DNA of 32,000 bases from Candidatus Saccharimonadota bacterium (GCA_963677105.1 OY781871.1:150001-182000), one strand, 5' to 3'; numbered from the stretch's first letter, positions 1 through 23,996 are shown. Program-made: numbers and translations. The notes: generated by a model from the letters alone, not told the origin.

Positions 1-3000
1 TCCATAAGAAAGCCATGTGTCAGTGTCTTTTTGAACAGGAGCATCAAATGTATCATCTCCATTTCCATAATAAATATATGTCCCCGAACCATACATTTGA
101 GCAATAACATCCATATTCCCATCGTCATCGAAGTCTGCTGCATCCATCCCTGAAACATAGCTTCCCGCATTTCCTGCTAAAGACAAAGCTGTGTGAGTAA
201 AACTCCAACTTCCACCATTTTCAAAATAATGTTCTCCCTCATTTTCATCAATTCCAAAAATATCGTAATCTCCATCGTTATCGAAGTCTGCTACCGCTAA
301 TCCTCGAATCTCATCTCCGGGGAAATAATCACTAGTAGTAACATATTGACTCGTAAATGTTCCAGAAGCTGATCCTGAATAAATTTGAATATCGCTATCT
401 CCTCCGGATAAAATATCGAAATATCCATCGTTATTAAAATCCGCTACTTTCCCGTCTAAAGAATCATCTGTTCCTTCAAATAAATCTCCTTGATATTCCA
501 ACACTCCTAATCCACTATCTCCATATATATTTGAATTCCAAACTTTTCCATCTCTATCAAAAATTGATACAAATATATCTTTCTGTATAAAATCTCCTGA
601 ACACGTTGATCCATCATATACTGACCAACTATCTACTCCTGATGATAATGTTTCCGTATAATTCTGCGACCAACCAGCTCCTCGAACTGTCCCATCTGGA
701 TTATTTACTGTTACCGTTTTTTTGTATGTCAAATCTTGTACTGCATCTCCTGCAGAAACTGTAATTGATTCTTGTGTGGCAGTTCCCCATGAAACAGTTG
801 CTCGTACTGCACTATCACTATATGAGCTCGAATCATAGTTATTCGCCTGATCTCTACATACCACTCTATATGCCCAATCTCCATCTCCAGCAAAATCTGG
901 ACATCCAGTACTTCCAACTCCAGCTCCCGTAACTGTACAACTACAACTACAACTTGTCCCCGTGCAAGCTTTCCAATCTGTTCCATTTCGTGTAACTCCA
1001 TTTTGAGTTCCCTGAAACTGACATTCTTTCATTCCATCATTTGTCGCATTTGTTGTGTCCATGTCATAACACGTTCCAGAAAGCGTCACTGTTTCCGTAT
1101 CATTAAATATCATAGAAGAAATACTCGCTGGTCCAGATGTTGGTTTATTATCCCATTCCGTCGTAAAATTAAGATTAAATTCACTTGATTCATTGTCTCG
1201 TACATCACGACATTTTATGTAGAAATTGTATGAACTTTCATCAATAATCTGTAATCGATGAAAGTGTGTTGTTTTATAATCATCATCCATTGGAACCATA
1301 TCGCCCCATGTATCTCCCGTCACAGGAGAATATCGACAAAGCGCTAATTCATCAGTATTAATTTTCCATACATACTCATATGTATTTTCTTCGGAAAGAA
1401 CCGGATCTGCTACAGCTGTTCCATTCGATGCTGGCGTATTAAAAGAAATGGTTGGCGCCACTGTATCAATCATGAATTCATAAGAATATTCCAGTGGTGA
1501 TCCATCTGTCGTATGAATGAGTGTTGTCCCATTATCATCTTTCATACGAACACGAACACGATAATCTCCATCCGTTTGTGTTCCTGTATTCCATCCTCCT
1601 GCCGTATCCCAAACCGCAGCAGTATCTAATTCTATCGTGCTCGCAAGTGCTGCAGAAGCATCTGACACAATTGTTGAAACCAGATTCCATGTAGAAGTTA
1701 CATATTTTTCTACGACAATGTCATAGGTGAGATCAAACGAACTTCCTCCAGTATTTTTAATATAGGATTCTGGCATCATATTTTCTGCCTTATCCCAAAT
1801 TATTTTCGGTGCGCCAACTCCATGCGCTTGAGGATCTGGACGTCCAGTAATCAACATTGAGTCTGAGTAATAATACCCCATAGTTGGGCTTCCTGTATAT
1901 GTCGCTTCTGGAACTCCATTAGTAGGACCACTCGTTGATTCATAAAAATCAATTGAATTTGAATTTGGATAAATAACTTCTATAACACCATCATCATCCG
2001 TATCTCCAAACTCTGCTATTACTCCATATGATCCCTCATCACGTCCATACCACTCTCTCTCATATGCTCCTGTTGTAGGGTTTATCTGAAATACATGTGC
2101 ACGACCATTTAGTTCTCCAACAACAAATTCATCTATTCCATCTCCATCCCAATCGGCTACTCCTCCTGTCATTTGATATCCATGTCCCACATCTACATCT
2201 GCTTGCGTACTACTCCATGTTCCCGTTTCTCCATCAAAGTCATATACTAACGGAATTCCAGCAGAAATATCCGTAATAAGTTCTGGATATCCATCCATGT
2301 CTACATCTAACATTGAAGAACCCCAATAATTATATCCCGAATTATTATAATCTTGATGTTCGTATGTACCATTTCCTCCGTATTGCCACAGGTTTCTCCG
2401 TCCAGAACTCGTATATCGTTGTCCCAACATTTCTGGAACTCCATCTCCATCAATATCTCCGACCGATCCCATCATTTGATAATACACTTGTTCTTCAAAT
2501 GACGTATAATCTGCACCTGAATTCCAATAAGAAGGATCTGTTACGTCCAATCCTGCTTCTTTTACATAAGAAGAACCATTCCATCCATAAATGGATGATC
2601 TATTGTGGGCATAACCAGGAGCAATTACTTCATTAATTCCATCCATATCTAGATCTCCTACCGTAATATTATAGGTGTAAACATCTGCATCCATTGCAGC
2701 AGTAGTTCCTCCATTTACATTTTCATATTCTCCGCTCGTAGAATTATATTCAAAAGACCATGTATATCCATTCGCATAATACGATACCAATAGATTTGGT
2801 TTTCCATTTCCATCAACATCTGCAATAGCTAATGATGGATATGATCCCATATCCCATGCTTGCCGAAATACTGATTCATACGCATCTACTCCATTCCACT
2901 TAATGATTTCAACTCCATAATCATGATCGGCTATCACAATCTCTGATTTGCCATCTCCGTCCAAATCTGTCTCGGGATAGAAAAACACTTGAGTATTGTC

Positions 3001-5259
3001 AAAAGCAACAGCTGGCGCAGCCTTTGTTCCATTTTCCGTTTTATCAAATACTAAATAAAAGTTTCGCGTCGTATTATTTGTTGTTATTCCATTAAGAACA
3101 AAATCTATTCTTCCTTGCGCATTTGTGGCTGCATTATACGTTGGATACGGATGTACAAATCGTGCTTTTTTCAAACTTGTTATTGCTCCATTCCCATCGT
3201 GCTCTGCCACCCGAAAACATGTATCACACATTGTTCCTGTCGTGCCAAGATCTGCATACAATTGAGTGAAATCTACCGGAAAAGAAATTAAATAATCCTC
3301 ACGATCATATTCTGCTGCGTCCACTGTGAATGGCATTTTATACGCCCATTCATCCTCATCCAATATTGAATCTAATTCACGAAGTTCAACATCTGTACTT
3401 CCAACGTAACTATCTTGAATTGCCCCAATAAAAACATCTGCAGAAATCCCCGTACACTGATTATTAATACAATTATCATTTCCTGTACAGTCACTTACTG
3501 TCGCACAACAATCACCTGAATCACAACAATATCCATTTTGACAATGCCCACTCGTACAATCTGTATTTTCATCACAAGCAGAACCATTTGCTAAATCCGC
3601 TTCACAAACACTTCCATTACAATAATAATCATCCCAACAATGAGTATTTGATGAACAAGTTATATAACAACTCGATGTACTAGAAGCCTTATATGGTGAA
3701 CAACTCGTACAGGATGGATTATTAAATCCCACATCATCAGTACAAGTTGCAAGTAAATCAAATCCTCCATTGGTTTCTCCATCCGGAGCACAATAATCAT
3801 TTGCTGTATCTGGTGAATTTTCTGCTGTATCCCATATACCAGTATTACATTTTTTAAGCCAACTATTTCCAGAACAAAGAATTGAACCATCCACGTATTC
3901 TGTCGATCCTGGTCCATTCACACAAGAAGAAGCTGTTGCATGACAATACGCCCATATATCATCAAAATCTATATCACAATTTCCAGAAATACATTCTGTA
4001 TCTCCCGAACACACAAATCCTTCCTCTATATCACAATTTCCGCTTCCATCACATGAACACGCGTCCGTACCACTCGCCTCACATCCGGTAGAATCTTCAC
4101 ACGCTGTTCCCGGATCAGTATATCCATTTAACGGACTTTGACTTCCAGCTGGCTCATATCCAGAACAACTCAAGTTTCCTTCGTTCGTCGCTGACGTTCC
4201 TCCACATACCGTACAAGTTGCACAATTGATATCTATTCCATTACTCGATCCAACTATCCATTCTGGATCATAATCTACACTCGAACAATATCTTCCCACA
4301 TATTCATCACAATCATCTTCTCCTGTTGCTCTACAACGAGCTCCTCCTAAATCATGTCCTTTACAAATAAATAACTCCACTCCTGAAAGCTCCTCATCCG
4401 CTGTATCATATCCTGTTTGGTTACTGCTCCCCGAACATTCCTTGTCTGCTGGAGCACAATATTTCGTACCAGTAAGATCAAGGTCAAAAATTGTCGCTAC
4501 ACAATTATCAGAAATACAATTACTATCGACTGTACAACTCTGTCCATTCTGCGCTAAACAATCTCCTTCTGCATTACATCCTTCTCCAGCTGCACAGCCA
4601 TGTTGTGCTCCATCCACATAACAAACCTCTGCATAAGAATCATAATTTGTTACATAACTATTTGCAGGACAGCTTTTATTACAGTTTGAATCTTTACAAG
4701 AAACACTTGTCGCTCCTGCTCCAGAACAAGAAGTAGCAACATTGTTACACGAAGTTCCACCAGAACAAAGTCCGTTATATGCCGTACTCGTGCTATAAGT
4801 TACACAATTACCACTACTCCAACCATAAATCCAAGCGGAACAAATAGTCGTACCACATTCTCCATCTGGATCTGTATTTTGTGGGATAGTAGTACAATAT
4901 CCTTCGTTTCCACTTTGATCACAGGACTGACACGTATCATCACACTTAGAATCACAACACACATCATCTACACAAAAATTAACTCCACATTGTGTATCCG
5001 AAGTACAAGGATCTCCAAGTGCTAAAGATGCATATGCATTTTCTATTCCCCACATATTTTGAAACACAGACGATACTAATTTTTCATTTTCTAATGAAAT
5101 TTCTAAAGACAAAAATGGTACTATTGATCCCAAAATTTGCGATAACAATGCGCAAATATTTAAAATTGCAATATGACGAATAACACGAATATTAAATCTC
5201 AAAGACTTCCTTTCATGAGAAAGTTTTTGTATCGATCGTTTTATTTTTACAAATCTCAT
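1..5259 (-). CDS. Very large protein truncated at its 3' end by the window edge (>1753 aa): N-terminal hydrophobic anchor or signal, ~600-aa cysteine-rich region, then FG-GAP/VCBS-type (integrin-alpha-like) beta-propeller repeats
   Basis: It is absent from the ORF track because no stop lies inside the window. Manual minus-strand translation from ATG 5259..5257 gives MRFVKIKRSIQKLSHERKSLRFNIRVIRHIAILNICALLSQILGSIVPFL...GDPCTSDTQCGVNFCVDDVCCDSKCDDTCQSCDQSGNEGYC. Spot translations at ~2208 (TQADVDVGHGYQMTGGVADWDGDGIDEFVVGELNGR) and at 1-180 (GMDAADFDDDGNMDVIAQMYGSGTYIYYGNGDDTFDAP) are in the same frame, since 5259-2208 and 5259-3 are both multiples of 3. The two listed minus ORFs in this span (729..1001, 3660..3917) are in a different frame. 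The start lies 1 nt after the stop of the upstream gene. Confidence 0.85.
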   Translation of the reverse strand, partial: MRFVKIKRSIQKLSHERKSLRFNIRVIRHIAILNICALLSQILGSIVPFLSLEISLENEKLVSSVFQNMWGIENAYASLALGDPCTSDTQCGVNFCVDDVCCDSKCDDTCQSCDQSGNEGYCTTIPQNTDPDGECGTTICSAWIYGWSSGNCVTYSTSTAYNGLCSGGTSCNNVATSCSGAGATSVSCKDSNCNKSCPANSYVTNYDSYAEVCYVDGAQHGCAAGEGCNAEGDCLAQNGQSCTVDSNCISDNCVATIFDLDLTGTKYCAPADKECSGSSNQTGYDTADEELSGVELFICKGHDLGGARCRATGEDDCDEYVGRYCSSVDYDPEWIVGSSNGIDINCATCTVCGGTSATNEGNLSCSGYEPAGSQSPLNGYTDPGTACEDSTGCEASGTDACSCDGSGNCDIEEGFVCSGDTECISGNCDIDFDDIWAYCHATASSCVNGPGSTEYVDGSILCSGNSWLKKCNTGIWDTAENSPDTANDYCAPDGETNGGFDLLATCTDDVGFNNPSCTSCSPYKASSTSSCYITCSSNTHCWDDYYCNGSVCEADLANGSACDENTDCTSGHCQNGYCCDSGDCCATVSDCTGNDNCINNQCTGISADVFIGAIQDSYVGSTDVELRELDSILDEDEWAYKMPFTVDAAEYDREDYLISFPVDFTQLYADLGTTGTMCDTCFRVAEHDGNGAITSLKKARFVHPYPTYNAATNAQGRIDFVLNGITTNNTTRNFYLVFDKTENGTKAAPAVAFDNTQVFFYPETDLDGDGKSEIVIADHDYGVEIIKWNGVDAYESVFRQAWDMGSYPSLAIADVDGNGKPNLLVSYYANGYTWSFEYNSTSGEYENVNGGTTAAMDADVYTYNITVGDLDMDGINEVIAPGYAHNRSSIYGWNGSSYVKEAGLDVTDPSYWNSGADYTSFEEQVYYQMMGSVGDIDGDGVPEMLGQRYTSSGRRNLWQYGGNGTYEHQDYNNSGYNYWGSSMLDVDMDGYPELITDISAGIPLVYDFDGETGTWSSTQADVDVGHGYQMTGGVADWDGDGIDEFVVGELNGRAHVFQINPTTGAYEREWYGRDEGSYGVIAEFGDTDDDGVIEVIYPNSNSIDFYESTSGPTNGVPEATYTGSPTMGYYYSDSMLITGRPDPQAHGVGAPKIIWDKAENMMPESYIKNTGGSSFDLTYDIVVEKYVTSTWNLVSTIVSDASAALASTIELDTAAVWDTAGGWNTGTQTDGDYRVRVRMKDDNGTTLIHTTDGSPLEYSYEFMIDTVAPTISFNTPASNGTAVADPVLSEENTYEYVWKINTDELALCRYSPVTGDTWGDMVPMDDDYKTTHFHRLQIIDESSYNFYIKCRDVRDNESSEFNLNFTTEWDNKPTSGPASISSMIFNDTETVTLSGTCYDMDTTNATNDGMKECQFQGTQNGVTRNGTDWKACTGTSCSCSCTVTGAGVGSTGCPDFAGDGDWAYRVVCRDQANNYDSSSYSDSAVRATVSWGTATQESITVSAGDAVQDLTYKKTVTVNNPDGTVRGAGWSQNYTETLSSGVDSWSVYDGSTCSGDFIQKDIFVSIFDRDGKVWNSNIYGDSGLGVLEYQGDLFEGTDDSLDGKVADFNNDGYFDILSGGDSDIQIYSGSASGTFTSQYVTTSDYFPGDEIRGLAVADFDNDGDYDIFGIDENEGEHYFENGGSWSFTHTALSLAGNAGSYVSGMDAADFDDDGNMDVIAQMYGSGTYIYYGNGDDTFDAPVQKDTDTWLSYG

Positions 5260-5260
5260 A

Positions 5261-6691
5261 TTAATTTACTTCAATTACAAGTTCACTATTGGCTGTATCC
5301 CAATAGATTTTTCCACTTCCAATCTGAATTGCATCGGTACTAGAAGTGTCATCAAATTTTACGGCTCCACTAACATGTAGCTTTGCCGTCGGATCTGCTA
5401 CATTGACTCCTAAATCTCCATTTGCATCCAAAATCATTTGTTGCGTTCCAGCCGTATCAAATCGAATAATATCTTCGTCAGCACTTTCTTCTACTTGAAC
5501 TAACGTATCTCCATCCGCATCTGTCATAGAGTTACTGCTCAATATTCCTGTAGCAACAGTTGTTCCATTCCATTTCAATATACCTCCAACAGCATACAGT
5601 TTGTTTGTTGTCGTCCCTGGCTCTGTCATATCTGATAAATGAATATCTCCGTTTATATCCAAAAGACTTGCCGGCGTTGCCGTTCCAATTCCTACATTTC
5701 CATTTTTTAATACAGTCATAGCATTCGCCTCTGAACCCACACCTGTTCCAATTCCTATCTCGAAGACCGAATCTAAATTATACCAATTTGTCGCTGAATT
5801 ACTTTCTGTTGCAATCCCAATATTATATCTTCCAATCGCACGACTTGCAAGTGATGCAGCATGTGTTGAATAACCTCCAGCATGGGAATAACTCCCCTCT
5901 GCATATGTATCACCACCTTCTGCATGCGAAGAACCACCCTCGGCATGCGAAGAATAACCTTCCGCATGCGCATAATCATACGATGCATATGTAATACCAC
6001 CTTCAGCGTGCGATGCATACCCTTCTGCATGTGAACCTACTCCCTCTACATGTGAATTTACCCCTTCAGCAATTGTTTGATACCCTTCTGCATGTGAATT
6101 ATCAATTACATCCCCAAATAAAAATGATAATCCCGGAGCGTAATCAAAACCATCTCCAGTAATTCCTGCCGCAGCTATACTTGCTGCCGTCATCGTAATT
6201 GTTGTTGCTGTCTTAGACTCTACTACCAATCCTTGATACCAATCTTCATCGTACCCTTCATAAGCAACCATCGTCTCTCCAACACCTACTGTTGATGTGG
6301 ATTCACCCGAACTCACTGTAAATGTACGCGTTGAATGTACGTAGCTATCTAGCAATATTTGTTTTCGTGCCATCGCAAATTTTCCTCTCTCACTTGATCC
6401 ATTTTCATAAAATCGATGACTTGCACCACTTATTCCAACTATATCTAATTTTGCATTTGGATCATCTGTTCCTATTCCAACAAATCCGGCATCAGTGTAA
6501 TGAACTACTTTATTTGTCGTTACATTGTAGGTTGGTCCAGTAGCAAACACTATTCCTGAAATCAAAAGACTCACCATTGTCATTCCGAGCTTAATTCGGA
6601 ATTCAACAGTATAACTCTTTGCTCTGAGCTGCGGATTAATCCCGCAGTTACAAAGTGCTTTTTTCACGAACGCAAGAAATAGTTTTTTCAT
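5261..6691 (-). CDS. Secreted fibre-like protein with a YadA-head/Hep_Hag-like 'SHAEG' repeat array and tail-fibre-like C-terminal modules. The start is uncertain: 6736, 6691 or 6583.
   Basis: The track ORF is 5261..6736. I prefer ATG 6691 (MKKLFLAF...) because it overlaps the TGA of the upstream small ORF as ATGA, the coupling seen elsewhere in the locus. ATG 6583 (MTMVSLLISGIVFATG) is an alternative signal-peptide-like start downstream of a hairpin. Motifs present: GFVGIGTDDPNAKLDIVG, the SHAEGY/SHAEGG array, GNVGIGTATPASLLDINGD, and DTLVQVEESADEDIIRFDTAGTQQMILDANG. Confidence 0.85.
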   Translation of the reverse strand: MKKLFLAFVKKALCNCGINPQLRAKSYTVEFRIKLGMTMVSLLISGIVFATGPTYNVTTNKVVHYTDAGFVGIGTDDPNAKLDIVGISGASHRFYENGSSERGKFAMARKQILLDSYVHSTRTFTVSSGESTSTVGVGETMVAYEGYDEDWYQGLVVESKTATTITMTAASIAAAGITGDGFDYAPGLSFLFGDVIDNSHAEGYQTIAEGVNSHVEGVGSHAEGYASHAEGGITYASYDYAHAEGYSSHAEGGSSHAEGGDTYAEGSYSHAGGYSTHAASLASRAIGRYNIGIATESNSATNWYNLDSVFEIGIGTGVGSEANAMTVLKNGNVGIGTATPASLLDINGDIHLSDMTEPGTTTNKLYAVGGILKWNGTTVATGILSSNSMTDADGDTLVQVEESADEDIIRFDTAGTQQMILDANGDLGVNVADPTAKLHVSGAVKFDDTSSTDAIQIGSGKIYWDTANSELVIEVN

Positions 6692-7023
6692 TGTGTGTAT
6701 TTGTTTACGATTTGAGTTCGAACTGTACAAGTCCAAACTCCGAATATACGCGCATTCTCGCTACCAAAAGTAATGTAGTTCAGCCCTGTCGCCACTGCCC
6801 CCAATGCCGACAGGACAGAGCTCACTACTTCTGAGAATGAAAATGAAGTGTATGTCATAAGAAAGTTAGTATTAGATGAAACATCACATTTCTGATTCTT
6901 CTCGTCTTTTCCACCAAAAGTAATGTAGTTCAGCCCTGTCGCCACTGCCCCCAATGCCGACAGGACAGAGCTCACTACTTCTGGTGATGAAAACGATGTA
7001 TATGTCATAAGAAAATTAAACAT
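6688..7023 (-). CDS. Possible small protein (111 aa from ATG 7023; track ORF starts at 7038) with an internal 50-codon duplication. It may instead be a non-coding structured repeat region.
   Basis: For coding: the ORF is open across both repeat copies; ATG 7023..7021 overlaps the upstream TAA as TAATG; its TGA overlaps the next ATG as ATGA; and the first three differences between copies are synonymous third-position changes (TAT/TAC, ACA/ACT, TCG/TCA). Against coding: the perfectly conserved core uses G-ending codons (GTG CTG TCG GGG GCG) that are atypical for neighbouring genes, and it folds into a long hairpin. Confidence 0.35.
   Translation of the reverse strand: MFNFLMTYTSFSSPEVVSSVLSALGAVATGLNYITFGGKDEKNQKCDVSSNTNFLMTYTSFSFSEVVSSVLSALGAVATGLNYITFGSENARIFGVWTCTVRTQIVNKYTQ
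6763..6868. repeat. Copy 1 of a tandem ~106-nt repeat (period 150 nt) containing a GC-rich 34-nt imperfect palindrome (6783..6816)
   Basis: 6763..6833 is identical over 71 nt to 6913..6983. Similarity continues with scattered mismatches to 6868/7018. Core palindrome: gccctgtcgccactgcccccaatgccgacaggac. Confidence 0.95.
6913..7018. repeat. Copy 2 of the tandem repeat (hairpin core 6933..6966), immediately downstream of the 850-aa gene stop
   Basis: Direct comparison with 6763..6868. The offset is exactly 150 nt. Confidence 0.95.
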
Positions 7024-14899: not shown

Positions 14900-14916
14900 T
14901 TACAACAGGCTATTTT
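14866..14916. repeat. 51-nt segment spanning the gene junction, identical to 19545..19595
   Basis: The run aaaagatgagactgaacaatttcttattcatcatttacaacaggctatttt occurs at both junctions. Flanks stay similar with few mismatches for roughly 40 nt further on each side. Confidence 0.95.
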
Positions 14917-17900
14917 TAAAGACGAACTACAAAGAGCTGTTTTCCCAACTCCCCCCATAGTGTCAAATTTCCAGAAATTTCCGTAACTTCCCGTTCCTCC
15001 TGAAAAAGTCCAACCATCACAGTCATTCGTATTATCTGTACTTGGAAACTTCGCCGCTCCGGTGCTAATCCAAACTTCTTGTCCGTCTAATGAAGTAACA
15101 TCTTCACTACTTATTGTGTAAAAAATCTCATCACTTGAACACATGTGACTTCCTGTATATTCATCATCACAAATAGCATGAGCTGCTTTATATCCAGTAA
15201 GTCCTCCTGTAAATGAAAGTGAGCCATTATAATTATCAGGAGTTCTTCCTACATATTTCGCTTGCTCATTTGCTACAACACTCGCCGCCAAGTCAGAAAC
15301 ATCTACTCCATCAACAGTTCCTGAAACCGCAATATCTCCACCAATTGTTGCATCTCCTGAAAGGAACAAGTCTTGCCATTCAGATGAACCTGATCCCAAA
15401 TCATATGCATTGGTTGCATTTGGAAGGAGATTATTTGCATTAACATTTGCGTCTACATTTAAAATTCCCGATAGAGTTCCTCCTGTTAACTGTAAATAAT
15501 CAGAATCATGATTGTGCGTACCACTCACTTTTGAGGCTAAATCTGTTTCAATATCTTCTAATCGCAAATCTACTGATCCAAATATTCCACTGGCAGAAGA
15601 ATTTCGTGCTTCCAAAACTTCTGTTTCAACGGTTGTCGATCCTTGTCCCGCCCAAGTCGCTCCATCATAACCGACTAAAGTAACACCAGAAATAACTGGA
15701 GTAGAAGTACCAGATCCACTAACCATAGTAGCCTTGGCTCTTAAATCGGTACCAATATTGGTGAATTCCCACATAGATCCAGGAGTAACTGGACCTTCCC
15801 AATTAGAACCCCCATCTGCTGTCAAATACCAAGTAATAGAATCACCAGCACCTGCTCCTCCACTATAATCAAATTTAGCCATAGTAAAGTCGGCTACAGA
15901 AGTAGCTAAAGTCTCTGTTTCAAAAGTATTAGAAGCCTCAAAAATTAACTGACTCTTCGACATGTGAGTGTCAGAATAATTAGAAAAATACCAATAGCCA
16001 TTATAATAATGCGGCTGCCAATGATAAGAAGATGTTTCTTCTGCGTTACCAGTGACTTTTCCTGTGTCAGATATAATAAAATACTCCTGAGCAGTTAAAT
16101 CATAAACTAAATATCCATAGGGCATACCACTCCAAGCACCAAGCCAAATTTGATTATTGATTCGAGCTATATCCCAACGAGTAACGGCTACTGGAATCTC
16201 ATCAATAATCTTATGAAATTCTAGTGAACCAGTAGTTTTAGATAATTTTTGCCAATTATTATAACCAGACAACCAAACAATGTCGGAATCCAAAGGATCT
16301 TGAAAAGAAGAATAAACATCATCATGATAAGTATTAATTCCTGGAGTAGTATCTGTGTCATAATGTTGAATTAACGTATCAGTGTCCATATCCCAAATAT
16401 AGAAACCATTAGAAGTAGACAGATGTAATTCATTACCATACGTCTCAGAAGCATAATATGTACCAGACACTAAACCATCTACAGAACCATAATCAGTAAA
16501 AGTGTCGGCTAACACATCATAAACCTGCATATAACCAGTAGTTGGGAAGGTGTAAATCTTCCCATCATAATATTCCATAGCACTATCAAATGATGTTCCA
16601 TGATTCAATGAATTTAAATCAGAATTTGAAGTAGTGAATTGAGTAACGGTATTAGAATCAATATCAATCTTAATCATTCCATTGTCATAACTATTATTCG
16701 TAGCATAAAGATCATTCCGTACCGGATCATAAGCCAAATGCTGCCAATAATTATTTGGTAGAGATGGGGTAGAAGCAGTCCACCATTCATTTGCTATGGT
16801 TTCAGTATCTAAATTAATAATTTTAATTCCATATCCATAGGTACCTAAATACATCTTATTTCCATAAATCAAAGTACCACCCATAGATCGAGAAGATCCA
16901 TAACCATAACTCAAACTTATTGTTTCCCAAGCACTATGATCATTTTGAATCGTACCTAATTGATTATTATAATAAGCGGTAGTATTAGCTGTTTTAACTT
17001 TGGAAGAATCCATGAAATTCTCACCAACTACGGTCGCATTACTCAAAATAGAAGAATAATTCGCAATAACACCATTAAATCGATCATTTAATGAAGCATA
17101 CGTACTTCGACCAGCGACCACCTCGTCCACACGATCTCCCGAAATCATTCCCGTGTTATCAATTACTGTCGTACTTCCCACTTTAAATCCTCCTGTTGCA
17201 CTTACTGTTCCTGTTGCAGAAATATCTCCTGTTGCACTTACGTCTCCAGTCAAACCAATTCCACTTGTACTTGTTATGCTAATTGGATTCGTTCCATCTC
17301 CAATGGTAAGCATTCCATCTGATTCAATGGAAGCTGCTGAAGAAAACTTTAAATTTCCTGCAATTTCCAACTTTTCACTCGGTGTCGTTGTCCCGATTCC
17401 TACATTTCCCGTTGCTGCATCAATTCTCATTGCCTCTTGCACACTTCCGTCATAATACTGAAAATAATAATCATTTCCTCCAAAATAAACGTGATCATGA
17501 TAATATTTTGCTCCGCTATCAAAACTAAGGAAGTTACTACTATCTAATCGAATATTTCCTTCCTCTATATCTAATTTTTCAGCTGGAGTCGCTGCTCCAA
17601 TTCCCACATTTCCATCTTCATCAATTATCATTCTCTCTGTTCCAGCCGTATCAAAACGTATTTTATCTTCATCGGTTGACTCTTCTACTTGAATTTTTGT
17701 ATCACTATCTGCATCTGTCATTGAATCTGATGATATACTTCCAAGCGCTCCTGTAACGAAAGCTGTTGTCGCAATCGAAGCATCATTATCTCCTGCTGTT
17801 GGTGTTTGTGATTGAGGATCTCCGGTGAATGTTGGACTTTCAAGAAATGCAAATGTTTTTCTCGTTGTATCTGGTGTAAAGAAGAGATCTGTCCCATCAA

Positions 17901-19578
17901 ATTCCATTACTCCCGCTTCTGGTGTAGTAAGATTTATTCCTGATGTGAATTTCAATGGAGCTGTACTTGCCGTGGCTGTTCCTGCTTTCAAATGAAGTGC
18001 TGCTGTTGGACTTGTCGTCCCGATTCCCACGTTTCCACTTCCCGTAATACGCATCTTCTCAGATGTAATCTCTGCCTCTGCTGTTGAAAAATATAAGGCC
18101 ACATCATCATCTAGGACCACATCATTTGTTTTTAATGCTCCAATTTCTACTTCCCCATTCGCCACTTTAAATGTTTGTTTTATACCTGTTCCTTCTGACC
18201 CTCCACCATTATGTAACTTTATCCCCCCTGAAATAGTTGATGCCGCTCCAACATACATTGAATAAGCGTAACTCTTATCTGCCTTATAGTCATGTGTCCC
18301 ACTAAAAATGGTTCCCTCAACATTTAAATGCGATTTTGCAGAAAGGACTGAACTTGCATCATTAACATTTAACCTTACATCACCATCGTCTCTCACCACA
18401 AAAACAGGGGCATCTGCACTATTTTTTATACTTAATCCATATGTAGAAGATGTTGTCCCCGCTCCTTTAATATCTAACTTTGCACCTGGACTCACCGCTC
18501 CAATTCCTACATTCGCGTCATTATCTACGACAAATGAATTCGTTCCATTAGATAAATCTAAAAGTGAACCTGTTCCTTCTTGCACTCCCCAAACTAATGG
18601 ATCTGATGTTGTAAACATTGCTGCTGACTGAGTATATGCTCCATCTGCATCTACAAAACCTCCTGCTGCAAACTCTGGAATATCTAACTCTGAACAGGCA
18701 CATGTTTGAGGACTTGCACTCGTCACAACTCCTGTCGATCCGGCTCCAGTACATTCTCCTGGTAATCCTGATGCTGTAACGGTACAAGCTTCATCCACAA
18801 CTCCATCACATCCATCAGTAGTGATTGTGTCTCCACTCAATAAGAAATATCCATCTGCACATGTTCGAGTAGAACAAGTAGTTGCATATAATACATTATC
18901 TTCTCCGGACACAGGAGTTACATTTTTTTGAACTTCACATGCTCCATCTGATCCCGTTCCTGTTCCATTACAATCAAGATATGAACTATGACAAACAGGG
19001 TCACAATCCGATTCATATTTAACGTGAGTTCCATAATCATCTCCACTATTTCCATAGAGAATCTCACAATCTGAAGTATCAGTATCACAGTTGGTGTATC
19101 CCGTCATACAATTCGTTGTTTCGCCCTGTATCCCCTCGTCACATGAGAAATGCCCTCCTTTTCCATCAACTCCTTGTTCACATTCCGTTGTTACATGTAA
19201 AGCTACACAAGTCGAATCCTCTTGACAAAACCAGTTTGCTGGCATTGTTGCTGGTGATGGCATACAAGAATTTGTCCCTAAACAATGATATACATATCCT
19301 CCGACACTTTCCGTTCCTCCATCTTTCCATCCATAATCTGCTGAACTTAGTGCTCCTGTAGCAGGAATATTCCCTGAAATATCTGCTGCTGTTGAACAAG
19401 TCGTTGTATTACACTGATACTGATCAATTGGACATTCTGCACTCGTTTCTTCAATTCCATTCACACAATTGGCTGGATCTGTGGCCCAATTATCTCCTGT
19501 AATTGCTGCCCACACAGTTCCATTCCCCCCAAGGAGAAGAACAGAAAAGATGAGACTGAACAATTTCTTATTCATCAT
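14896..19578 (-). CDS. Giant secreted fibre protein (1560 aa): signal peptide, Cys-rich N-terminal domain, tail-fibre-like shaft, inserted beta-propeller-like region plus beta-sandwich, C-terminal '...ACCK' domain
   Basis: Track ORF. MMNKKLFSLIFSVLLLGGNGTVWA is a signal peptide. Motifs: SSYLDCNGTGTGSDGACE, NVGIGTTSPTAALHLKAGTATASTAPLKFTSG, ESPTFTGDPQSQTPTAGDNDASIATTAFV, DTKIQVEESTDEDKIRFDTAG. A W/Y/D-rich repeat region follows (GNKMYLGTYGYGIKIINLDTETI..., DGKIYTFPTTGYMQVYDVLADTF...). It ends GYKAAHAICDDEYTGSHMCSSDEI...NDCDGWTF...SLKIACCK. Confidence 0.95.
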   Translation of the reverse strand: MMNKKLFSLIFSVLLLGGNGTVWAAITGDNWATDPANCVNGIEETSAECPIDQYQCNTTTCSTAADISGNIPATGALSSADYGWKDGGTESVGGYVYHCLGTNSCMPSPATMPANWFCQEDSTCVALHVTTECEQGVDGKGGHFSCDEGIQGETTNCMTGYTNCDTDTSDCEILYGNSGDDYGTHVKYESDCDPVCHSSYLDCNGTGTGSDGACEVQKNVTPVSGEDNVLYATTCSTRTCADGYFLLSGDTITTDGCDGVVDEACTVTASGLPGECTGAGSTGVVTSASPQTCACSELDIPEFAAGGFVDADGAYTQSAAMFTTSDPLVWGVQEGTGSLLDLSNGTNSFVVDNDANVGIGAVSPGAKLDIKGAGTTSSTYGLSIKNSADAPVFVVRDDGDVRLNVNDASSVLSAKSHLNVEGTIFSGTHDYKADKSYAYSMYVGAASTISGGIKLHNGGGSEGTGIKQTFKVANGEVEIGALKTNDVVLDDDVALYFSTAEAEITSEKMRITGSGNVGIGTTSPTAALHLKAGTATASTAPLKFTSGINLTTPEAGVMEFDGTDLFFTPDTTRKTFAFLESPTFTGDPQSQTPTAGDNDASIATTAFVTGALGSISSDSMTDADSDTKIQVEESTDEDKIRFDTAGTERMIIDEDGNVGIGAATPAEKLDIEEGNIRLDSSNFLSFDSGAKYYHDHVYFGGNDYYFQYYDGSVQEAMRIDAATGNVGIGTTTPSEKLEIAGNLKFSSAASIESDGMLTIGDGTNPISITSTSGIGLTGDVSATGDISATGTVSATGGFKVGSTTVIDNTGMISGDRVDEVVAGRSTYASLNDRFNGVIANYSSILSNATVVGENFMDSSKVKTANTTAYYNNQLGTIQNDHSAWETISLSYGYGSSRSMGGTLIYGNKMYLGTYGYGIKIINLDTETIANEWWTASTPSLPNNYWQHLAYDPVRNDLYATNNSYDNGMIKIDIDSNTVTQFTTSNSDLNSLNHGTSFDSAMEYYDGKIYTFPTTGYMQVYDVLADTFTDYGSVDGLVSGTYYASETYGNELHLSTSNGFYIWDMDTDTLIQHYDTDTTPGINTYHDDVYSSFQDPLDSDIVWLSGYNNWQKLSKTTGSLEFHKIIDEIPVAVTRWDIARINNQIWLGAWSGMPYGYLVYDLTAQEYFIISDTGKVTGNAEETSSYHWQPHYYNGYWYFSNYSDTHMSKSQLIFEASNTFETETLATSVADFTMAKFDYSGGAGAGDSITWYLTADGGSNWEGPVTPGSMWEFTNIGTDLRAKATMVSGSGTSTPVISGVTLVGYDGATWAGQGSTTVETEVLEARNSSASGIFGSVDLRLEDIETDLASKVSGTHNHDSDYLQLTGGTLSGILNVDANVNANNLLPNATNAYDLGSGSSEWQDLFLSGDATIGGDIAVSGTVDGVDVSDLAASVVANEQAKYVGRTPDNYNGSLSFTGGLTGYKAAHAICDDEYTGSHMCSSDEIFYTISSEDVTSLDGQEVWISTGAAKFPSTDNTNDCDGWTFSGGTGSYGNFWKFDTMGGVGKTALCSSSLKIACCK

Positions 19579-19595
19579 TTACAACAGGCTATTTT
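19545..19595. repeat. 51-nt junction segment identical to 14866..14916
   Basis: Direct comparison. It covers the signal-peptide codons of the downstream gene, the ATGATGA start/stop overlap, and the ...ACCK codons of the upstream gene. Confidence 0.95.
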
Positions 19596-22500
19596 GAAAC
19601 TCGAACTACAAAGAGCTGTTTTACCAACTCCTCCCATAGCTGAAAACTCCCAGAAGTTTCCATAATAACTACTTCCACCATCATGTAACCATCCGTTACA
19701 GTCGTTTGTATTATTCGCACTTGGATATTTGGCTGCTCCTGTACTTACCCATGCTTGTGTTCCATTCGTCCATGTGTAAGAAGACAAATTATTTATCGTA
19801 AAAAATATTTCATCTACTGAACACATATGACTATCCGCAAACGCTCCTCCTTCTGCATTACAAATCTCATTCGCTGCTTTATATCCCGTAAATCCTCCCG
19901 TATACGTAAATGCTCCATTGTATGTCCCCGCTGTTAATCCCACATACATTGGCATTACATTTACTCCATCAACAGTAAATGTTCCATCTGTCACATCTAC
20001 ATTTCCATCTGAATCAATTATCATCGCTGTACTTCCTTCTGTCGTAAGTGTAATTGTTCCATCTGATCCAGAATCTGTTACCACCACTGACGTATCTCCT
20101 TCGATAATAGAACTCGCTGATAAACCACTAATTACATTTTGCACAAAAGCTGTTGTTGCAATTTGTGTTGTATTTGTACTCGATCCTGCCGTTGGAGCAG
20201 TTGGAGTTCCCGTGAAATCCGGACTCTCAATAAACGCCAGTGTTTTTCTCGTTGTGTCTGGTGTAAAGAATAAGTCAGTTCCATCATATTCCATTACTCC
20301 CGCTTCTGGTGTAGTAAGATTTGTTCCCGCTGTAAATTTCAGCGGAGCCGTGTTTGCTGCTGTCGTTCCCGCTTTTAAGTGTAATGTTGCTGTTGGTGAA
20401 GTAGTTCCAATTCCTACTCTCCCCTCTGATTGGTCGACAAACAAATCATCTGTATAAACAGAAAAATCTCCCGATCCAGCAACTCTTGTCCCTCCACTGG
20501 CATTTGTAGGCGATAGATCAACACTATATCCTTTTAAAATATATCTTGACGATGAATCTGCTCCCATTTGCCAGTTTCCTCCAGAACTTCCTGTAAACTC
20601 AATGGTAAAGTCTCTGTCCGCCCCCCCATTATTTGCTGTTGCTTTAAATACGGGCGATGGATAGGCTAATTGTTCGCCAGCATCAATATGCAAAAAAGTT
20701 TCTGGTGTTGAAGTCCCAATCCCCACGTTTCCTTCGTCGGTTATTCTCATTCCCTCGGAAACTGTACCAAATGCCAGCGATCCAATTCCACTTCCTGAAG
20801 GTTTTCGAATTGCAGAAATGTATGCTGTAGTTATTCCTGAGGGATTTCCTGTAACATCAAAATTAATTCTCGCTTCAGCATTATCGGCTGTACTGTTTCG
20901 CTGAATTGTTAAAATATCTTGAGAACTCGTCGATGAAACATGTAAAGGATTCACCGGACTTGTCGTCCCGATTCCCACGTTTCCTTCTGGTTGCAACGCA
21001 ATATCTCCTACTCCACTTGCGATCTTGAAATATCCATCTCCTGCCCCAGTTCCTTCAAAGGACAAACTTCCCCACTCTGTATTATCTACATCTGGATCTG
21101 TAGCAGATTGAATAAAAAATGTCGGATTTGTTTTATTTCCGTGATCCGCATTTCTGTGACGATTTACATTTGTGGTTAAAACCAAAGAATTCCAAGGACT
21201 ATCCAATGCTAGGGAATTTGCTGATGTGCTTTCCATGTACCCAAGTGGAGTCTCTAAATAATTTCCAGTAATGTATGTAGCTCCATTGAAATGTGTAGAT
21301 CCATCAAAACTCACTTTCCCGTCAAATTCAGCATCTTCAGCAATATACAATTGTCTTTCTACTGCAACAGATTGATTTGGCGTTCCTGTTCCTATTTGCA
21401 ATTTTGCTGCTGGCGTTGTTGTCCCAATTCCTACATTTCCATCAACTACACGCAATGTATCTTGCAAGTTAACTTCTCCTACTTTCTTCACGCTCACATT
21501 ATCAATAGAAAATGTTCCTGTTCCATCCATATAAAAACTTATAAAACCTTCATAACCACCTGTCCCCACAGTACGATAAAAAACATTATGTCCGTCAGAA
21601 ATAGCACCGTATGTCGCAGCACCAACATCAAAATTCGCAGTTGCTCCTGTAATATTAGAGGCATCAAATTCTATCACCACATAATCTCCTGCATCTAATC
21701 CCAAATCTTGCCGTAAAGCACTGTATGCATCTCCACTAAAATTCGCTGTCGTCCCTCCTGGAATAGTCCAACCAGCACCCTTTGTCCAATCACTATCGGC
21801 AGCAAATGTTCCATTTGTAACAGTATCATTCCCAACTCCCAACGTAGCACTTCCCGCTACTTGCAGTTTTGATTCTGGTGCTGTCGTTCCTATTCCCACA
21901 TTTCCCGACAATCGATAAACATTTCCACTTCCTTCTGTCCAATCCGTATCAGCTCCCGCTGTCACTGCTTCTGTTACAAATGCCGTTGTTGCAATTTGTG
22001 TTGTATTCGTCGCCGGTGCTGCTGTTGGAGCCGTTGGAATTCCTGTCAAAGCAGCATTTGTAAACATCGTTGCCTTGCTCTCATTTGTCACATTTCCAAG
22101 ACCTACCATTGCCGAAGTAATTCCTGAAACCGTTCCAGTAAAAGTTGGAGAATTCGATGGCGCTTTCAAACTCAAAACAGTATCTAAATCGTCCAAAATA
22201 TCTTGCACATTAGTGCTATCTGAATTATCAAATTCATCCGTTGCCGTTACTTCTGATGCTGTTTGATCATCTGTTCCTGTATTTGAAAGTTCCGTTATTG
22301 TTTTACAGTTCAATCCATCTTCATCACAAAATCCTGTTGCATGAACACTTCCCGAAACCTGAACCGATTTATTTTGAATTCCTCCACTTCCATCTGATTC
22401 AGCATAAATTTTAAAAATATTTTCACTGTCCAACTGAACCGAAGCACTCATTTCTGTTCCAACTCCAGCAGAACTACTCACTGGCATATTGAAAATGGAC

Positions 22501-23090
22501 ACAGCACCTGAGTCTGTATCCGCTGTCAACGCACCAAGCAAAAGCGATGCTCCAAGCTCAATCGCTCCGTCTGCCGTCGCCCGAAACATATTCACCACTC
22601 CTGTCCCCGCACTATCTCGAGCCGAAATCCAAGAGTTATTATCCAATCGAATCTCTCCCGCTACATCCAATTTTGTTGTAGGAGTTATCGTTCCAATTCC
22701 CAATTTCCCGTCTACTATTGCCGCCCCTTGAAAACACTCTCCGGCCTCCACGGTGGTGTTGTCGTTGAAATCAACATGTGATGTTCCTGTCGGACATGTC
22801 CCCGTATCCGCAGTATAAGTCCCCAAACCAACAAGATCGTCTGTTAATCCTGCTGTTTTTTCATCTACAAAAATCTTTCTTGCTACATCAAGAATTGCAT
22901 TAAAGTCTGTTATGCTCAACGAATCACCGACACTTTTTGTCGGAATTTCAGAAGCATATGGTCCTGACAAATCTGCCGCACTTACTGGCGAACAAACAAG
23001 TAAAAGTCCCCCGATCCCAATTATTAGTTTTTTAAACTTTTTTTTGGGACCCACAGACAAAGTTGGGGGCGTGATTAACGTTTTTTTCAT
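19575..23090 (-). CDS. First gene of the locus. Secreted fibre protein (1171 aa) with no Cys-rich N-terminal domain, a CBM/galactose-binding-like segment, and the C-terminal '...ACCK' domain
   Basis: Track ORF. The N-terminus MKKTLITPPTLSVGPKKKFKKLIIGIGGLLLVCSPVSA is signal-like. AAAGGA lies 7 nt upstream of the ATG. Motifs: NSPTFTGTVSGI, IPTAPTAAPATNTTQIATTAFV, NGTFAADSDWTKGAGWTIPGG...FSIDNVSVKK, RVGIGTTSPTATLHLKAGTTAANTAPLKFTAG. It ends GYKAANEICNAEGGAFADSHMCSVDEI...NDCNGWLHD...SFKIACCK. Confidence 0.95.
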   Translation of the reverse strand: MKKTLITPPTLSVGPKKKFKKLIIGIGGLLLVCSPVSAADLSGPYASEIPTKSVGDSLSITDFNAILDVARKIFVDEKTAGLTDDLVGLGTYTADTGTCPTGTSHVDFNDNTTVEAGECFQGAAIVDGKLGIGTITPTTKLDVAGEIRLDNNSWISARDSAGTGVVNMFRATADGAIELGASLLLGALTADTDSGAVSIFNMPVSSSAGVGTEMSASVQLDSENIFKIYAESDGSGGIQNKSVQVSGSVHATGFCDEDGLNCKTITELSNTGTDDQTASEVTATDEFDNSDSTNVQDILDDLDTVLSLKAPSNSPTFTGTVSGITSAMVGLGNVTNESKATMFTNAALTGIPTAPTAAPATNTTQIATTAFVTEAVTAGADTDWTEGSGNVYRLSGNVGIGTTAPESKLQVAGSATLGVGNDTVTNGTFAADSDWTKGAGWTIPGGTTANFSGDAYSALRQDLGLDAGDYVVIEFDASNITGATANFDVGAATYGAISDGHNVFYRTVGTGGYEGFISFYMDGTGTFSIDNVSVKKVGEVNLQDTLRVVDGNVGIGTTTPAAKLQIGTGTPNQSVAVERQLYIAEDAEFDGKVSFDGSTHFNGATYITGNYLETPLGYMESTSANSLALDSPWNSLVLTTNVNRHRNADHGNKTNPTFFIQSATDPDVDNTEWGSLSFEGTGAGDGYFKIASGVGDIALQPEGNVGIGTTSPVNPLHVSSTSSQDILTIQRNSTADNAEARINFDVTGNPSGITTAYISAIRKPSGSGIGSLAFGTVSEGMRITDEGNVGIGTSTPETFLHIDAGEQLAYPSPVFKATANNGGADRDFTIEFTGSSGGNWQMGADSSSRYILKGYSVDLSPTNASGGTRVAGSGDFSVYTDDLFVDQSEGRVGIGTTSPTATLHLKAGTTAANTAPLKFTAGTNLTTPEAGVMEYDGTDLFFTPDTTRKTLAFIESPDFTGTPTAPTAGSSTNTTQIATTAFVQNVISGLSASSIIEGDTSVVVTDSGSDGTITLTTEGSTAMIIDSDGNVDVTDGTFTVDGVNVMPMYVGLTAGTYNGAFTYTGGFTGYKAANEICNAEGGAFADSHMCSVDEIFFTINNLSSYTWTNGTQAWVSTGAAKYPSANNTNDCNGWLHDGGSSYYGNFWEFSAMGGVGKTALCSSSFKIACCK

Positions 23091-23157
23091 TCGAAGATCC
23101 TTTCTTTAGAGGGGCAAAAAAACCTTCCCCGAGATTATCTCATGCAACTATAGAGTC

Positions 23158-23178
23158 GCGCAAACGATATATTCGCGC
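23158..23178 (-). promoter_or_regulatory. GC-rich hairpin in the putative 5' leader of the fibre operon
   Basis: The minus-strand RNA GCGCGAA-UAUAUCG-UUUGCGC forms a 7-bp stem with one G.U pair. On the plus strand that position is an A/C mismatch, so the fold favours the operon transcript. It is an isolated GC island in a very AT-rich region, ~70-90 nt upstream of ATG 23090. Confidence 0.3.
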
Positions 23179-23197
23179 ACACACACCTGTTCCTTAT

Positions 23198-23226
23198 ATA
23201 TATAAGTGAACACTTTTTGTATACAA
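23198..23226 (-). promoter_or_regulatory. Candidate sigma70-like promoter for the fibre operon (-35 TTGTAT, 17-nt spacer, -10 ATATAT/TATATA)
   Basis: Read on the minus strand: TTGTAT (23226..23221), ACAAAAAGTGTTCACTT, ATATAT (23203..23198). It lies ~110-135 nt upstream of ATG 23090. AT-rich context makes chance matches likely. Confidence 0.25.
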
Positions 23227-23229
23227 AAA
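23214..23229. promoter_or_regulatory. Perfect 16-bp palindrome TTTTTGTATACAAAAA (operator-like), overlapping the candidate -35
   Basis: The sequence is self-complementary. A second copy of the TTTTGTATACAAAA core lies exactly 50 bp away, centre to centre. Confidence 0.4.
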
Positions 23230-23263
23230 TAAACATATGCACACAAAATAAATCCTCGAATAA

Positions 23264-23278
23264 TTTTTGTATACAAAA
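23264..23278. promoter_or_regulatory. Second copy of the palindromic motif (perfect palindrome TTTTGTATACAAAA at 23265..23278)
   Basis: Same TTGTATACAA core as 23214..23229. A degenerate third site, tctgtacaaa, lies at ~23304..23313. Confidence 0.4.
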
Positions 23279-23838
23279 TAATGAAAATTTCCTGAATATT
23301 TTTTCTGTACAAACTTATTTTTTGATGAAATATTTTGATCAAATAATAGAAGTCTATTAAATAGAATTATTAAAATAAAAAAGTTTTAAAAAGTTTTTCA
23401 CTTTTTATATAAATTTTTAATGATATTTATATTAAAATTTCTAAAAAAACTCTCTATTTGTCAAAAATACAAAAAAATATTTTTATATACTTTTAAAAAA
23501 TAAGCACAAATAATTAAAAAATATATATATTAAAAAATATCGATAAAAACATTTATAACAATTAATCTTTGAACAAAAAAAATGAACGAGAATATAATTA
23601 ATATTCGAACTTAAGTACATTAAAACAAACTACAAACTTTTTCAACTAAAAACCAATTCTATAACATTTTTAGAAAAAATTTATGATTTTTTTTAAAACA
23701 AAAAATAAATATACAAATTAATTCATATATTTTAATATATATTTTATGAAAAATTTCATATCTAAATATTTAAAATAAATTTCGAAATTCTAAAAAAACA
23801 GCTAGATAAAAATCCTAAATACAACTGAATTTAAAAAC

Positions 23839-23866
23839 TTGAATTAAAAAAAAAGATATGTACACT
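23839..23866 (+). promoter_or_regulatory. Candidate promoter for the tRNA (-35 TTGAAT, 16-nt spacer, -10 TACACT)
   Basis: TTGAAT at 23839..23844 and TACACT at 23861..23866, 15 nt before the mature tRNA 5' end. The match is weak. Confidence 0.25.
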
Positions 23867-23880
23867 TCCGTCAGTTCTTC

Positions 23881-23957
23881 GCACGTGTAGCTCAGCTGGA
23901 TAGAGCACCGGTCTTCGGAACCGGGTGTCGGGGGTTCGAATCCCTCCACGTGTACCA
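23881..23957 (+). tRNA. tRNA-Arg (anticodon UCG), 77 nt, CCA encoded
   Basis: Manual cloverleaf. Acceptor stem GCACGTG/CACGTGT with a G1.U72 pair. D arm GCTC-AGCTGGATA-GAGC, typical of tRNA-Arg. Anticodon arm CCGGT-CTTCGGA-ACCGG, giving anticodon TCG with G37. Variable loop GTGTC. T arm GGGGG-TTCGAAT-CCCTC. Discriminator A, then CCA. Confidence 0.9.
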
Positions 23958-23967
23958 CATAAAAATT

Positions 23968-23996
23968 AAAACATCCCAATTAAGGGATGTTTTTTA
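23968..23996. terminator. Bidirectional rho-independent terminator between the tRNA (+) and the convergent adhesin gene (-)
   Basis: The stem aaaacatccc / gggatgtttt (10 bp) has a 6-nt loop, aattaa. It is followed by a T-run on the plus strand and by tttaattttt on the minus strand. Confidence 0.7.

Follow-up and report, generated by a model that had tools for sequence, protein, structure and literature searches.

A coupled operon of exported, phage-tail-fibre-like proteins from a Candidatus Saccharimonadota bacterium and a gene-order rule that points to co-assembly

A 32,000-nucleotide (nt) stretch of DNA from a Candidatus Saccharimonadota bacterium (GCA_963677105.1 OY781871.1:150001-182000; hereafter the window, with positions counted from its first letter) was found to carry a minus-strand operon of large exported proteins with phage-tail-fibre-like shafts. 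A preliminary description of this DNA had placed six consecutive minus-strand genes at the locus, with three 4-nt overlaps and a last gap of 1 nt; open reading frame (ORF) listing and translation bore out both the coordinates and the junctions, all six genes being co-oriented. The “starter” fibre gene, g1171 (19575..23090; 1171 residues), encodes a signal peptide, an N-terminal module (residues 46–130), a tail-fibre-like shaft and a C-terminal domain, ACCK. It is followed by two “extender” genes: g1560 (14896..19578; 1560 residues), with a signal peptide, a Cys-rich N-terminal domain (CysN), a shaft with an unassigned middle region and ACCK, and g1775 (9572..14899; 1775 residues), with CysN at residues 28–301, a long shaft and ACCK at residues 1635–1775. 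The “terminator” gene, g850 (7023..9575; 850 residues), encodes CysN (residues 25–285) and a short shaft, and lacks ACCK. A 286-nt spacer (6737..7022) then precedes g491 (5261..6736), a short fibre of 491 residues from a TTG start or 476 residues from Met16, the probable start (at 6691). The last gene, g1753+ (1..5259), encodes more than 1753 residues and continues past the window edge. Hidden Markov models (HMMs) built here assigned ACCK only to g1171, CysN plus ACCK to g1560 and g1775, and CysN only to g850, reproducing the domain combinations noted earlier for these four proteins.

At each of the three overlapping junctions (g1171/g1560, g1560/g1775 and g1775/g850) the DNA reads ...TGT TGT AAA TGA, with the downstream ATG inside it; g491 and g1753+ are the pair separated by 1 nt. 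The ATG of g1171 is preceded by a Shine-Dalgarno-like site, AAAGGA, and the 790-nt non-coding region 5′ of this gene (23091..23880, minus strand), with a GC content of ~24% as judged from the composition profile and sequence, is the presumed promoter and leader of the fibre operon; a promoter consensus scan of this region performed no better than on shuffled sequence. A repeat search over 1–23100 returned direct repeats consisting of shaft modules and gene junctions, the fibre genes having mosaic modules in common at 72–87% DNA identity. When g1171/g1560 is compared with g1560/g1775, the junction DNA across the stop and start is the most alike stretch (84–94%, versus ~50–60% elsewhere). The possibility of a recoded single giant gene was rejected, since the reading frame changes at the junctions, two stop codons stand in tandem in the frame of g1171 (TGATGA) and the downstream products have signal peptides of their own.

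The N-termini of all six products show a basic and then a hydrophobic stretch, as judged by heuristic inspection, in agreement with the Sec-type signal or anchor attributed to every product in the preliminary description. Apparently cleavable Ala-X-Ala-type sites were recognized by the same heuristic in g1171 (VSA|A), g1560 (VWA|A), g1775 (VWA|A) and g850 (ASA|A). The g1753 N-terminus resembles a signal anchor, its basic stretch being 28 residues long and the hydrophobic stretch after it ~23, and the type of export signal in g491 is ambiguous. Phage tail-fibre shaft motifs are found in the first five products. The strict GNVGIGT-type pattern is matched by 20 repeats plus one degenerate match, and a few further repeats come from looser variants in the translations (ANVGIGT, YNVGIGT, GFVGIGT and HRVGIGL). 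There are six copies of SPTFTG/SPDFTG and five of IATTAFV. The earlier count of “dozens” of such repeats is therefore generous but fair. The sixth product, g1753+, lacks fibre shaft motifs.

The assignment of these motifs to the phage tail-fibre and endosialidase-chaperone type was confirmed: the shafts match PHROG tail-fibre families with E-values down to 4e-23, and a tblastn search of ~50,700 phage records matched tail-fibre or “chaperone of endosialidase” genes in 211 records. The SPxFTG...IATTAFV module was found in roughly 200 phages, and a longer β-helical stretch matches cyanophage “chaperone of endosialidase” and tail-fibre genes. Phage coverage of any query never exceeded 45% in this search, and the terminal domains were matched by no phage record. 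Pfam and NCBIfam recognized nothing in the first five proteins and FG-GAP repeats only in the sixth; the S74 chaperone domain was not found by Pfam in the window proteins. The closest CHARACTERISED system among solved structures is the Bd2133 fibre (8OND; phmmer E = 1.6e-5 for g1171 residues 692–938 and 4e-6 for g850), one of the mosaic adhesive trimer (MAT) fibres of Bdellovibrio bacteriovorus, which are signal-peptide-bearing, phage-like, trimeric and displayed on the predator (Caulton et al. 2024, PMC10769870).

Several modules are particular to single genes. The g1171 N-terminal module is common to other ACCK-only proteins, among them P0196, with 40% identity and E = 1e-15. The middle region of g1560 (15796–17238, residues ~790–1260) is rich in Tyr, Trp and Asn, contains no shaft motifs and gave no Pfam match; its sequence character suggests a β-propeller followed by a jelly-roll-like module, and it may represent a side-mounted binding domain. 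g1775 contains an internal duplication (10817–11050 and 13781–14014, 77% DNA identity), seen at the protein level as a module that occurs twice, “...TPxQYxTGTASQ...TITGVGTTFTS.MVGSQFVF.DG.SAGT.TAF...YKISYTGLQVD”. The C-terminal tip of g850 (residues 753–848; 7032..7319) is homologous to the C-termini of viral baseplate proteins: its last 95 residues match those of haloarchaeal tailed-virus “baseplate proteins” and of a jumbo phage protein (tblastn, 40–50% identity, E = 3e-7 to 5e-7), and it matches the baseplate protein family phrog_20556 with E = 4e-9. We propose that this tip could be the distal, target-binding end.

The ACCK domain occupies residues 1039–1171 of g1171 (19578..19976; HMM E = 1e-40) and 1421–1560 of g1560 (14899..15318), and the three window copies, including that of g1775, are mutually 48–62% identical. 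A single-domain word-index search gave no relatives and an alignment query gave nine; an exhaustive HMMER search defined a family of 1386 cluster representatives, 820 of them at E ≤ 1e-10. Among the 147 best representatives, 145 have the domain no more than five residues from the C-terminus. The proteins have a median length of 358 residues, and many are short, composed of a hydrophobic N-terminal segment, a linker and ACCK. Alignment of the three window copies with their relatives reveals six invariant cysteines, which end in an invariant Cys-Cys pair, and a conserved GPPGYT...NDC.GW loop; the pattern scan used a four-sequence subset, as the 12-sequence alignment was too diverse. Collagen-like Gly-X-Y repeats stand directly before ACCK in P0118 (PF01391) and in the protein of locus L005, which imply a trimeric stalk with ACCK as its head.

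The g1560 copy was used for structure modelling. An AlphaFold2 model based on a 13-sequence alignment reached a mean predicted local distance difference test score (pLDDT) of 83.6 and a predicted template modelling score of 0.80, and was used in place of one from a four-sequence alignment (pLDDT 37.5). ACCK models as a C-type-lectin-like fold, which may be extended to the g1171 copy by homology. All 50 matches listed by Foldseek against the PDB are C-type-lectin-like domains, with modest template modelling scores of 0.37–0.52; snake-venom protein-binding C-type-lectin-like chains come top (E = 2.4e-4, probability 1.0), and the tip of the Bdellovibrio fibre Bd2740 (8oks) is also among the matches listed. 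The search against predicted viral structures gave only weak lectin matches. At the sequence level, Pfam gave no match at E ≤ 10 in 13 members save one to DUF1554 (E = 0.2), Lectin_C (PF00059) not being matched, and no sequence in the PDB was matched. The EPN/QPD and WND motifs of calcium and sugar binding are absent from the ACCK alignments (A2 and A5). The long-loop region, where this type of fold usually binds its ligand, exceeds the domain average in conservation (2.60 versus 2.36 bits), which fits a conserved partner, and within the domain conservation is highest at the C-terminus. ACCK as the target of a diversity-generating retroelement was rejected: no reverse transcriptase is encoded among the ten window ORFs treated as genes, no template/variable repeat pair is found over 1–23100, and the loop is conserved, not hypervariable.

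In g1560, CysN spans residues 25–360 (18499..19506; alignment A1), contains 24 cysteines and scores E = 2e-155 with its HMM; neither Pfam nor the PDB gave a sequence match. Neither a membrane segment nor an LPXTG motif is present in the CysN fibres themselves, which supports a role for short ACCK proteins as their putative anchors.

Comparison of homologous loci revealed a gene-order rule: a gene ending in ACCK lies immediately upstream of a gene starting with CysN. A forward scan of 185,579 species genomes, with CysN as the only query, yielded 11 loci, nine of them with the upstream region visible, and in all nine the preceding co-oriented gene ends in ACCK. A reciprocal scan of metagenomes, with ACCK as the only query, yielded 12 loci, of which two are cut by the contig end; a CysN gene stands immediately downstream in eight of the remaining ten. 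Among 19 informative loci, 17 thus keep the rule, one of them on an archaeal contig. Many upstream ACCK proteins have just three parts: an anchor or signal that is hydrophobic, a linker that is collagen-like or rich in Ser and Thr, and ACCK itself. Longer arrays also occur. L028 consists of a 227-residue membrane-anchored ACCK starter, a 653-residue protein with both domains and a 1350-residue terminator with a Cys-rich start, and in L027 a protein with both domains is followed by a CysN gene. In L003, an ACCK-only gene is followed by two genes that have ACCK as well as a Cys-rich N-terminus, and then by one with the Cys-rich N-terminus alone. The ACCK domains of L003 form a divergent subtype and its N-terminal domain was rejected as a demonstrable CysN homologue (hhalign probability 4%), which hints that ACCK and N-domain partner types may co-vary between L003 and the window.

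In the archaeal locus (L006 6886–14602, on the 120-kb contig JANQNF010000001.1), an 896-residue ACCK-ending gene precedes a 1673-residue gene starting with CysN, and the pair adjoins genes for PCNA, HMG-CoA reductase and a triosephosphate isomerase. This distribution suggests that the ACCK/CysN cassette may have been transferred between bacterial and archaeal lineages. The L003 array (1–9973) lies directly downstream of type IV pilus genes (PilC-like T2SSF and N_methyl pilin) and five small unannotated genes, a layout that raises the possibility of a functional link between fibres and pilus. Many upstream ACCK genes (L008, L017–L020, L022 and L024–L026) encode an N-terminal domain of the type “LNYQGKL / MLNFSGKI...F.IY...GG..LW.E”, which resembles the N-terminus of P0069, a Bdellovibrio protein with an S74 tail-fibre domain. 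These ACCK proteins have the appearance of whole fibres of the MAT type, tipped by a lectin and followed in each case by a CysN fibre.

The two genes at the other end of the operon, g491 and the FG-GAP giant g1753+, lack both CysN and ACCK. g491 contains SHAEG-type repeats and one shared shaft module. The YadA-like head attributed to it in the preliminary description is a candidate feature, suggested by transitive homology: residues 212–345 are 40% identical (E = 2e-11) to part of P0112, and this part is assigned to YadA_head by Pfam (E = 2e-25), although Pfam gives no match on g491 itself. Pfam found no C-terminal outer-membrane β-barrel anchor domain either, and the protein ends in a shaft-like module. 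In g1753+, 69 cysteines are found in the first ~680 residues, and the protein also has FG-GAP propeller repeats (Pfam, E = 2e-33) and further β-rich domains. The combination of a Cys-rich region with FG-GAP repeats described earlier for this gene therefore stands, except that its Cys-rich region is not the CysN of g1560, g1775 and g850, a relationship rejected by an hhalign probability of 0.2%. The spacer between g850 and g491 contains two copies of a very stable ~75-nt hairpin with a GGGG loop, 150 nt apart and 93% identical (direct repeat D10), with an exact 36-nt core in both and an RNA folding z-score of −8.3. No further copy is present within the window, and membership in a known RNA family was rejected, as no Rfam family matched. 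The hairpins may act as a terminator, attenuator, processing or mRNA-stability element, and the pair may separate the four-gene chain unit from g491 and g1753, which may encode further surface proteins of the same regulon.

Beyond the upstream region of the operon, a plus-strand tRNA-Arg(TCG) gene and, directly after it, a bidirectional terminator-like hairpin with a 10-bp stem (23968–23993; together 23881–23993) stand between this AT-rich region and g776. The product of g776 (24020–26350, minus strand), which adjoins the fibre operon, is exported and may be a further protein of the cell surface; it comprises two Ig domains of AIR9/ZirU-like type and ends in a tail rich in lysine and glutamine. 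A plus-strand gene at 28494–30536 encodes a membrane-anchored M23 peptidoglycan endopeptidase fused to two S-layer-homology (SLH) domains, which indicates a probable S-layer-type envelope; its substrate could be the wall of the organism itself or that of a host. Besides these two, the window genes outside the fibre locus encode a PLD-like protein and one unknown, and their PHROG matches are generic domain matches. The G+C content at third codon positions (GC3) is 0.19–0.26 both in the fibre genes and in the flanks, the higher overall GC content of the fibre locus arising from its amino-acid composition, and recent horizontal transfer was rejected on this basis. Genome bins of Peribacteria, Shapirobacteria, Parcubacteria and Saccharibacteria supply the nearest relatives, those nearest to the window CysN being in Peribacteria bins, and TGA is the stop codon at all three ACCK ends; together these point to a probable bacterium of the Candidate Phyla Radiation (CPR, or Patescibacteria) with a standard genetic code. 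Those window proteins for which a look-up was possible are singletons, without a 90%-identity relative in a set of ~15 billion proteins. The locus is most likely a native chromosomal operon of such an ultra-small-genome bacterium.

That the operon encodes cell-surface attachment fibres of some kind is very probable. The preliminary description had offered alternative or co-assembled fibres, which proves to be the right pair of options; the gene-order rule, which it had missed, points to co-assembly. The present results concern gene anatomy, homologies, the modelled ACCK fold and gene order, and from the anatomy and comparative genomics we infer trimer formation, surface display, docking and host attachment. 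Our preferred reading, held tentatively and with a little less than even confidence, is that the fibres dock head to tail and so form a single composite fibre for host attachment. The products of g1171, g1560, g1775 and g850 would be exported separately by the Sec pathway, each folding into a trimeric shaft, as expected from its homology with Bd2133 and the fibres of phages, and each ACCK head would dock onto the CysN of the next gene's product. Joining would follow the gene order, with g1171 as the cell-proximal starter, g1560 and g1775 as extenders and g850 as the terminator, whose tip, similar to a phage receptor-binding tip, would contact the host cell. The composite fibre would contain ~5,250 residues per strand and be roughly 200–300 nm long, because solved and modelled MAT fibres measure ~0.4–0.6 Å per residue (PMC10769870). 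This length is taken to be comparable to that of the cell itself.

Several observations weigh against such a chain. An ancestral gene pair with repetitive shafts would also yield the starter/extender/terminator pattern automatically if those shafts underwent unequal crossing-over, so the gene pattern alone is no proof of a chain. Bdellovibrio Bd2740 has its C-type lectin fold as a distal, prey-facing tip, which favours ACCK as an adhesin (PMC10769870). No fusion protein with ACCK followed by CysN was found, and specificity for a fixed order is not evident in window ACCK domains that are 48–62% identical. Two of the ten informative loci picked by ACCK (L022 and L024) have no downstream CysN gene, and the L003 N-domain shows no demonstrable homology to the window CysN in spite of the similar array. 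These points lead to the possibility, appreciable if somewhat doubtful in our judgement, that the products are independent MAT-like adhesin fibres: each protein would form its own trimer, CysN would fix it to an envelope element, the C-terminal domain (ACCK or the g850 tip) would bind the host, and the genes would be co-regulated paralogues produced by duplication and shaft recombination. MAT, the closest characterized system, works in this way, in that its N-terminal retention domain is conserved and its tips vary, a C-type lectin fold being one of them (PMC10769870), and the Bd2740 tip is among the fold matches of ACCK. The mosaic modules shared between genes, the junction block duplicated as a unit and the separate signal peptide of every protein fit as well. 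However, independent fibres leave unexplained why an ACCK-ending gene precedes the CysN gene in every informative CysN-picked case, including minimal anchor-linker-ACCK pairs, why the ACCK ligand loop is conserved across phyla instead of being diversified, and why the calcium- and sugar-binding motifs are lacking.

A structural role in the envelope, for example as an S-layer-associated fibrous coat or as spacing fibres that recognize no partner, is improbable. In its favour are the export of the products, their repetitive make-up and high content of Gly, Thr and Ser, a neighbouring gene for an SLH-domain protein and the heavy investment of Peribacteria in envelope components (PMC4736985), but known members of the shaft and tip families, phage fibres and MAT adhesins, bind target cells, and the lack of close relatives among ~15 billion proteins fits fast-evolving recognition proteins better. 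Derivation from viral particle genes, such as prophage tail fibres, a tailocin or a contractile injection system, is more improbable still. The shaft motifs and the g850 tip are indeed homologous to phage tail-fibre and baseplate proteins, and a tRNA-Arg gene adjoins the locus; yet the locus is on the 5′ side of that gene, whereas integrated elements are usually found at the 3′ end of a tRNA gene. No capsid, portal, terminase, sheath, tube, baseplate, baseplate-hub or integrase gene is present among the ten window ORFs treated as genes, every product has an export signal, the GC3 is that of the flanks, the S74 chaperone domain is missing, and neither ACCK nor CysN was found in 2.9 million viral contigs. 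Homologous loci, for which embedding in prophages had been proposed as the check, are flanked instead by housekeeping genes (DXP synthase, penicillin-binding protein, RelA/SpoT, Obg and pilus genes). A prophage or tailocin origin was rejected on these grounds, which uphold the earlier view of cell-surface fibres as opposed to virion parts: the locus is cellular, not viral.

To our knowledge, little has been learned, apart from type IV pili, of the means by which CPR bacteria recognize and hold their hosts. The locus ties the giant Cys-rich exported proteins of these bacteria to a characterized class of adhesins, the phage-derived MAT fibres, and offers testable handles in a lectin-like family of ~1400 clusters and a strict ACCK/CysN neighbour rule. 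If head-to-tail docking underlies the rule, the cell-side anchor of such fibres would be identified, an anchor that is missing for the Bdellovibrio MAT fibres too, and bacterial and archaeal episymbionts would have in common a genetically programmable way of building extracellular fibres. It is possible, although we hold it more tentatively than the chain in the window, that a plug-and-socket system operates in several CPR lineages and at least one archaeon, in which a C-terminal lectin-like domain on a secreted or membrane-anchored protein captures the CysN of the next-encoded protein and fibres are built outside the cell from segments that are each exported on their own. Fibre length and tip would then be set by the order and number of genes (a starter, any number of extenders and a terminator), so that duplication of a gene junction would lengthen the fibre and swapping of the last gene would retarget it.

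The preliminary description knew of no described system with such an organization, a statement that went too far, as MAT fibres share its logic, the best PDB sequence match being a solved MAT shaft (PMC10769870), and clusters of Cys-rich proteins were reported in Peribacter in 2016 (PMC4736985). New here are the ACCK lectin-like family, CysN and the strict rule that makes the two neighbours in CPR lineages and on one archaeal contig; exported Cys-rich giants in Peribacteria (PMC4736985) and MAT fibres (PMC10769870) were already known. Ca. Peribacter riflensis has clusters of large (mean 1655 residues), signal-peptide-bearing, Cys-rich proteins, two of them FG-GAP integrin-like, which were proposed to function in attachment (Anantharaman et al. 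2016, PMC4736985). They resemble the window in being large exported Cys-rich proteins that include FG-GAP members, and the nearest relatives of the window CysN are in Peribacteria bins. That study offers no domain dissection, link to tail fibres or lectin folds, or gene-order rule, and the Peribacter riflensis genomes have 58.5% GC and 1.25 Mb (PMC4736985), versus 25–43% GC in the window.

The likeness to the MAT fibres Bd2133, Bd3182 and Bd2740 is broader, comprising a signal peptide, a phage-tail-fibre-like shaft with GNVGIGT-type repeats, C-terminal domains other than S74 (including the calcium-independent C-type lectin fold of Bd2740), multiple paralogues with swapped ends and an organism that must attach to other cells. 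MAT tips are swappable, being S74, TNF-like, β-sandwich or, in Bd2740, of C-type lectin fold, and the fibres share a conserved N-terminal domain that binds a surface element (PMC10769870). This β-rich domain of ~130 residues is one difference, the window proteins having instead a starter module or a Cys-rich domain of ~300 residues. MAT fibres are treated as single-protein fibres, and the MAT paper reports no operon or order rule, unlike the translationally coupled ACCK-to-CysN order of the window; its supplement lists MAT-like proteins in other predators, none of them in CPR (PMC10769870). The bearers also differ, a Gram-negative predator on one side and a probable CPR bacterium on the other. 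The N-terminus of P0069, which we presume to be a MAT, gave no significant BLAST match to the window proteins (best E = 0.49).

Among more distant systems, the Bordetella phage protein Mtd, to which the MAT paper likens Bd2740 as a receptor-binding protein of C-type lectin fold (PMC10769870), resembles the ACCK fibres as predicted here in having a trimeric tip, a calcium-independent C-type lectin fold and a protein ligand; the window differs in its conserved ACCK loop and in the absence of a reverse transcriptase and a template/variable repeat pair already noted. Collectins and Legionella Lcl, with a trimeric stalk and a C-terminal globular head, share the anchor-stalk-head layout of some ACCK members with a Gly-X-Y stalk, although ACCK has six conserved cysteines, the last two a Cys-Cys pair, and gave no Pfam match to Lectin_C or DUF1566 and no calcium or sugar motif. 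In phage T4, the consecutive segments gp34-gp35-gp36-gp37 of the long tail fibre join end to end in gene order to give one receptor-binding fibre. Although its proteins are not exported, are parts of the virion and use other junction domains and chaperones, this fibre would be the functional analogue of the chain proposed for the window.

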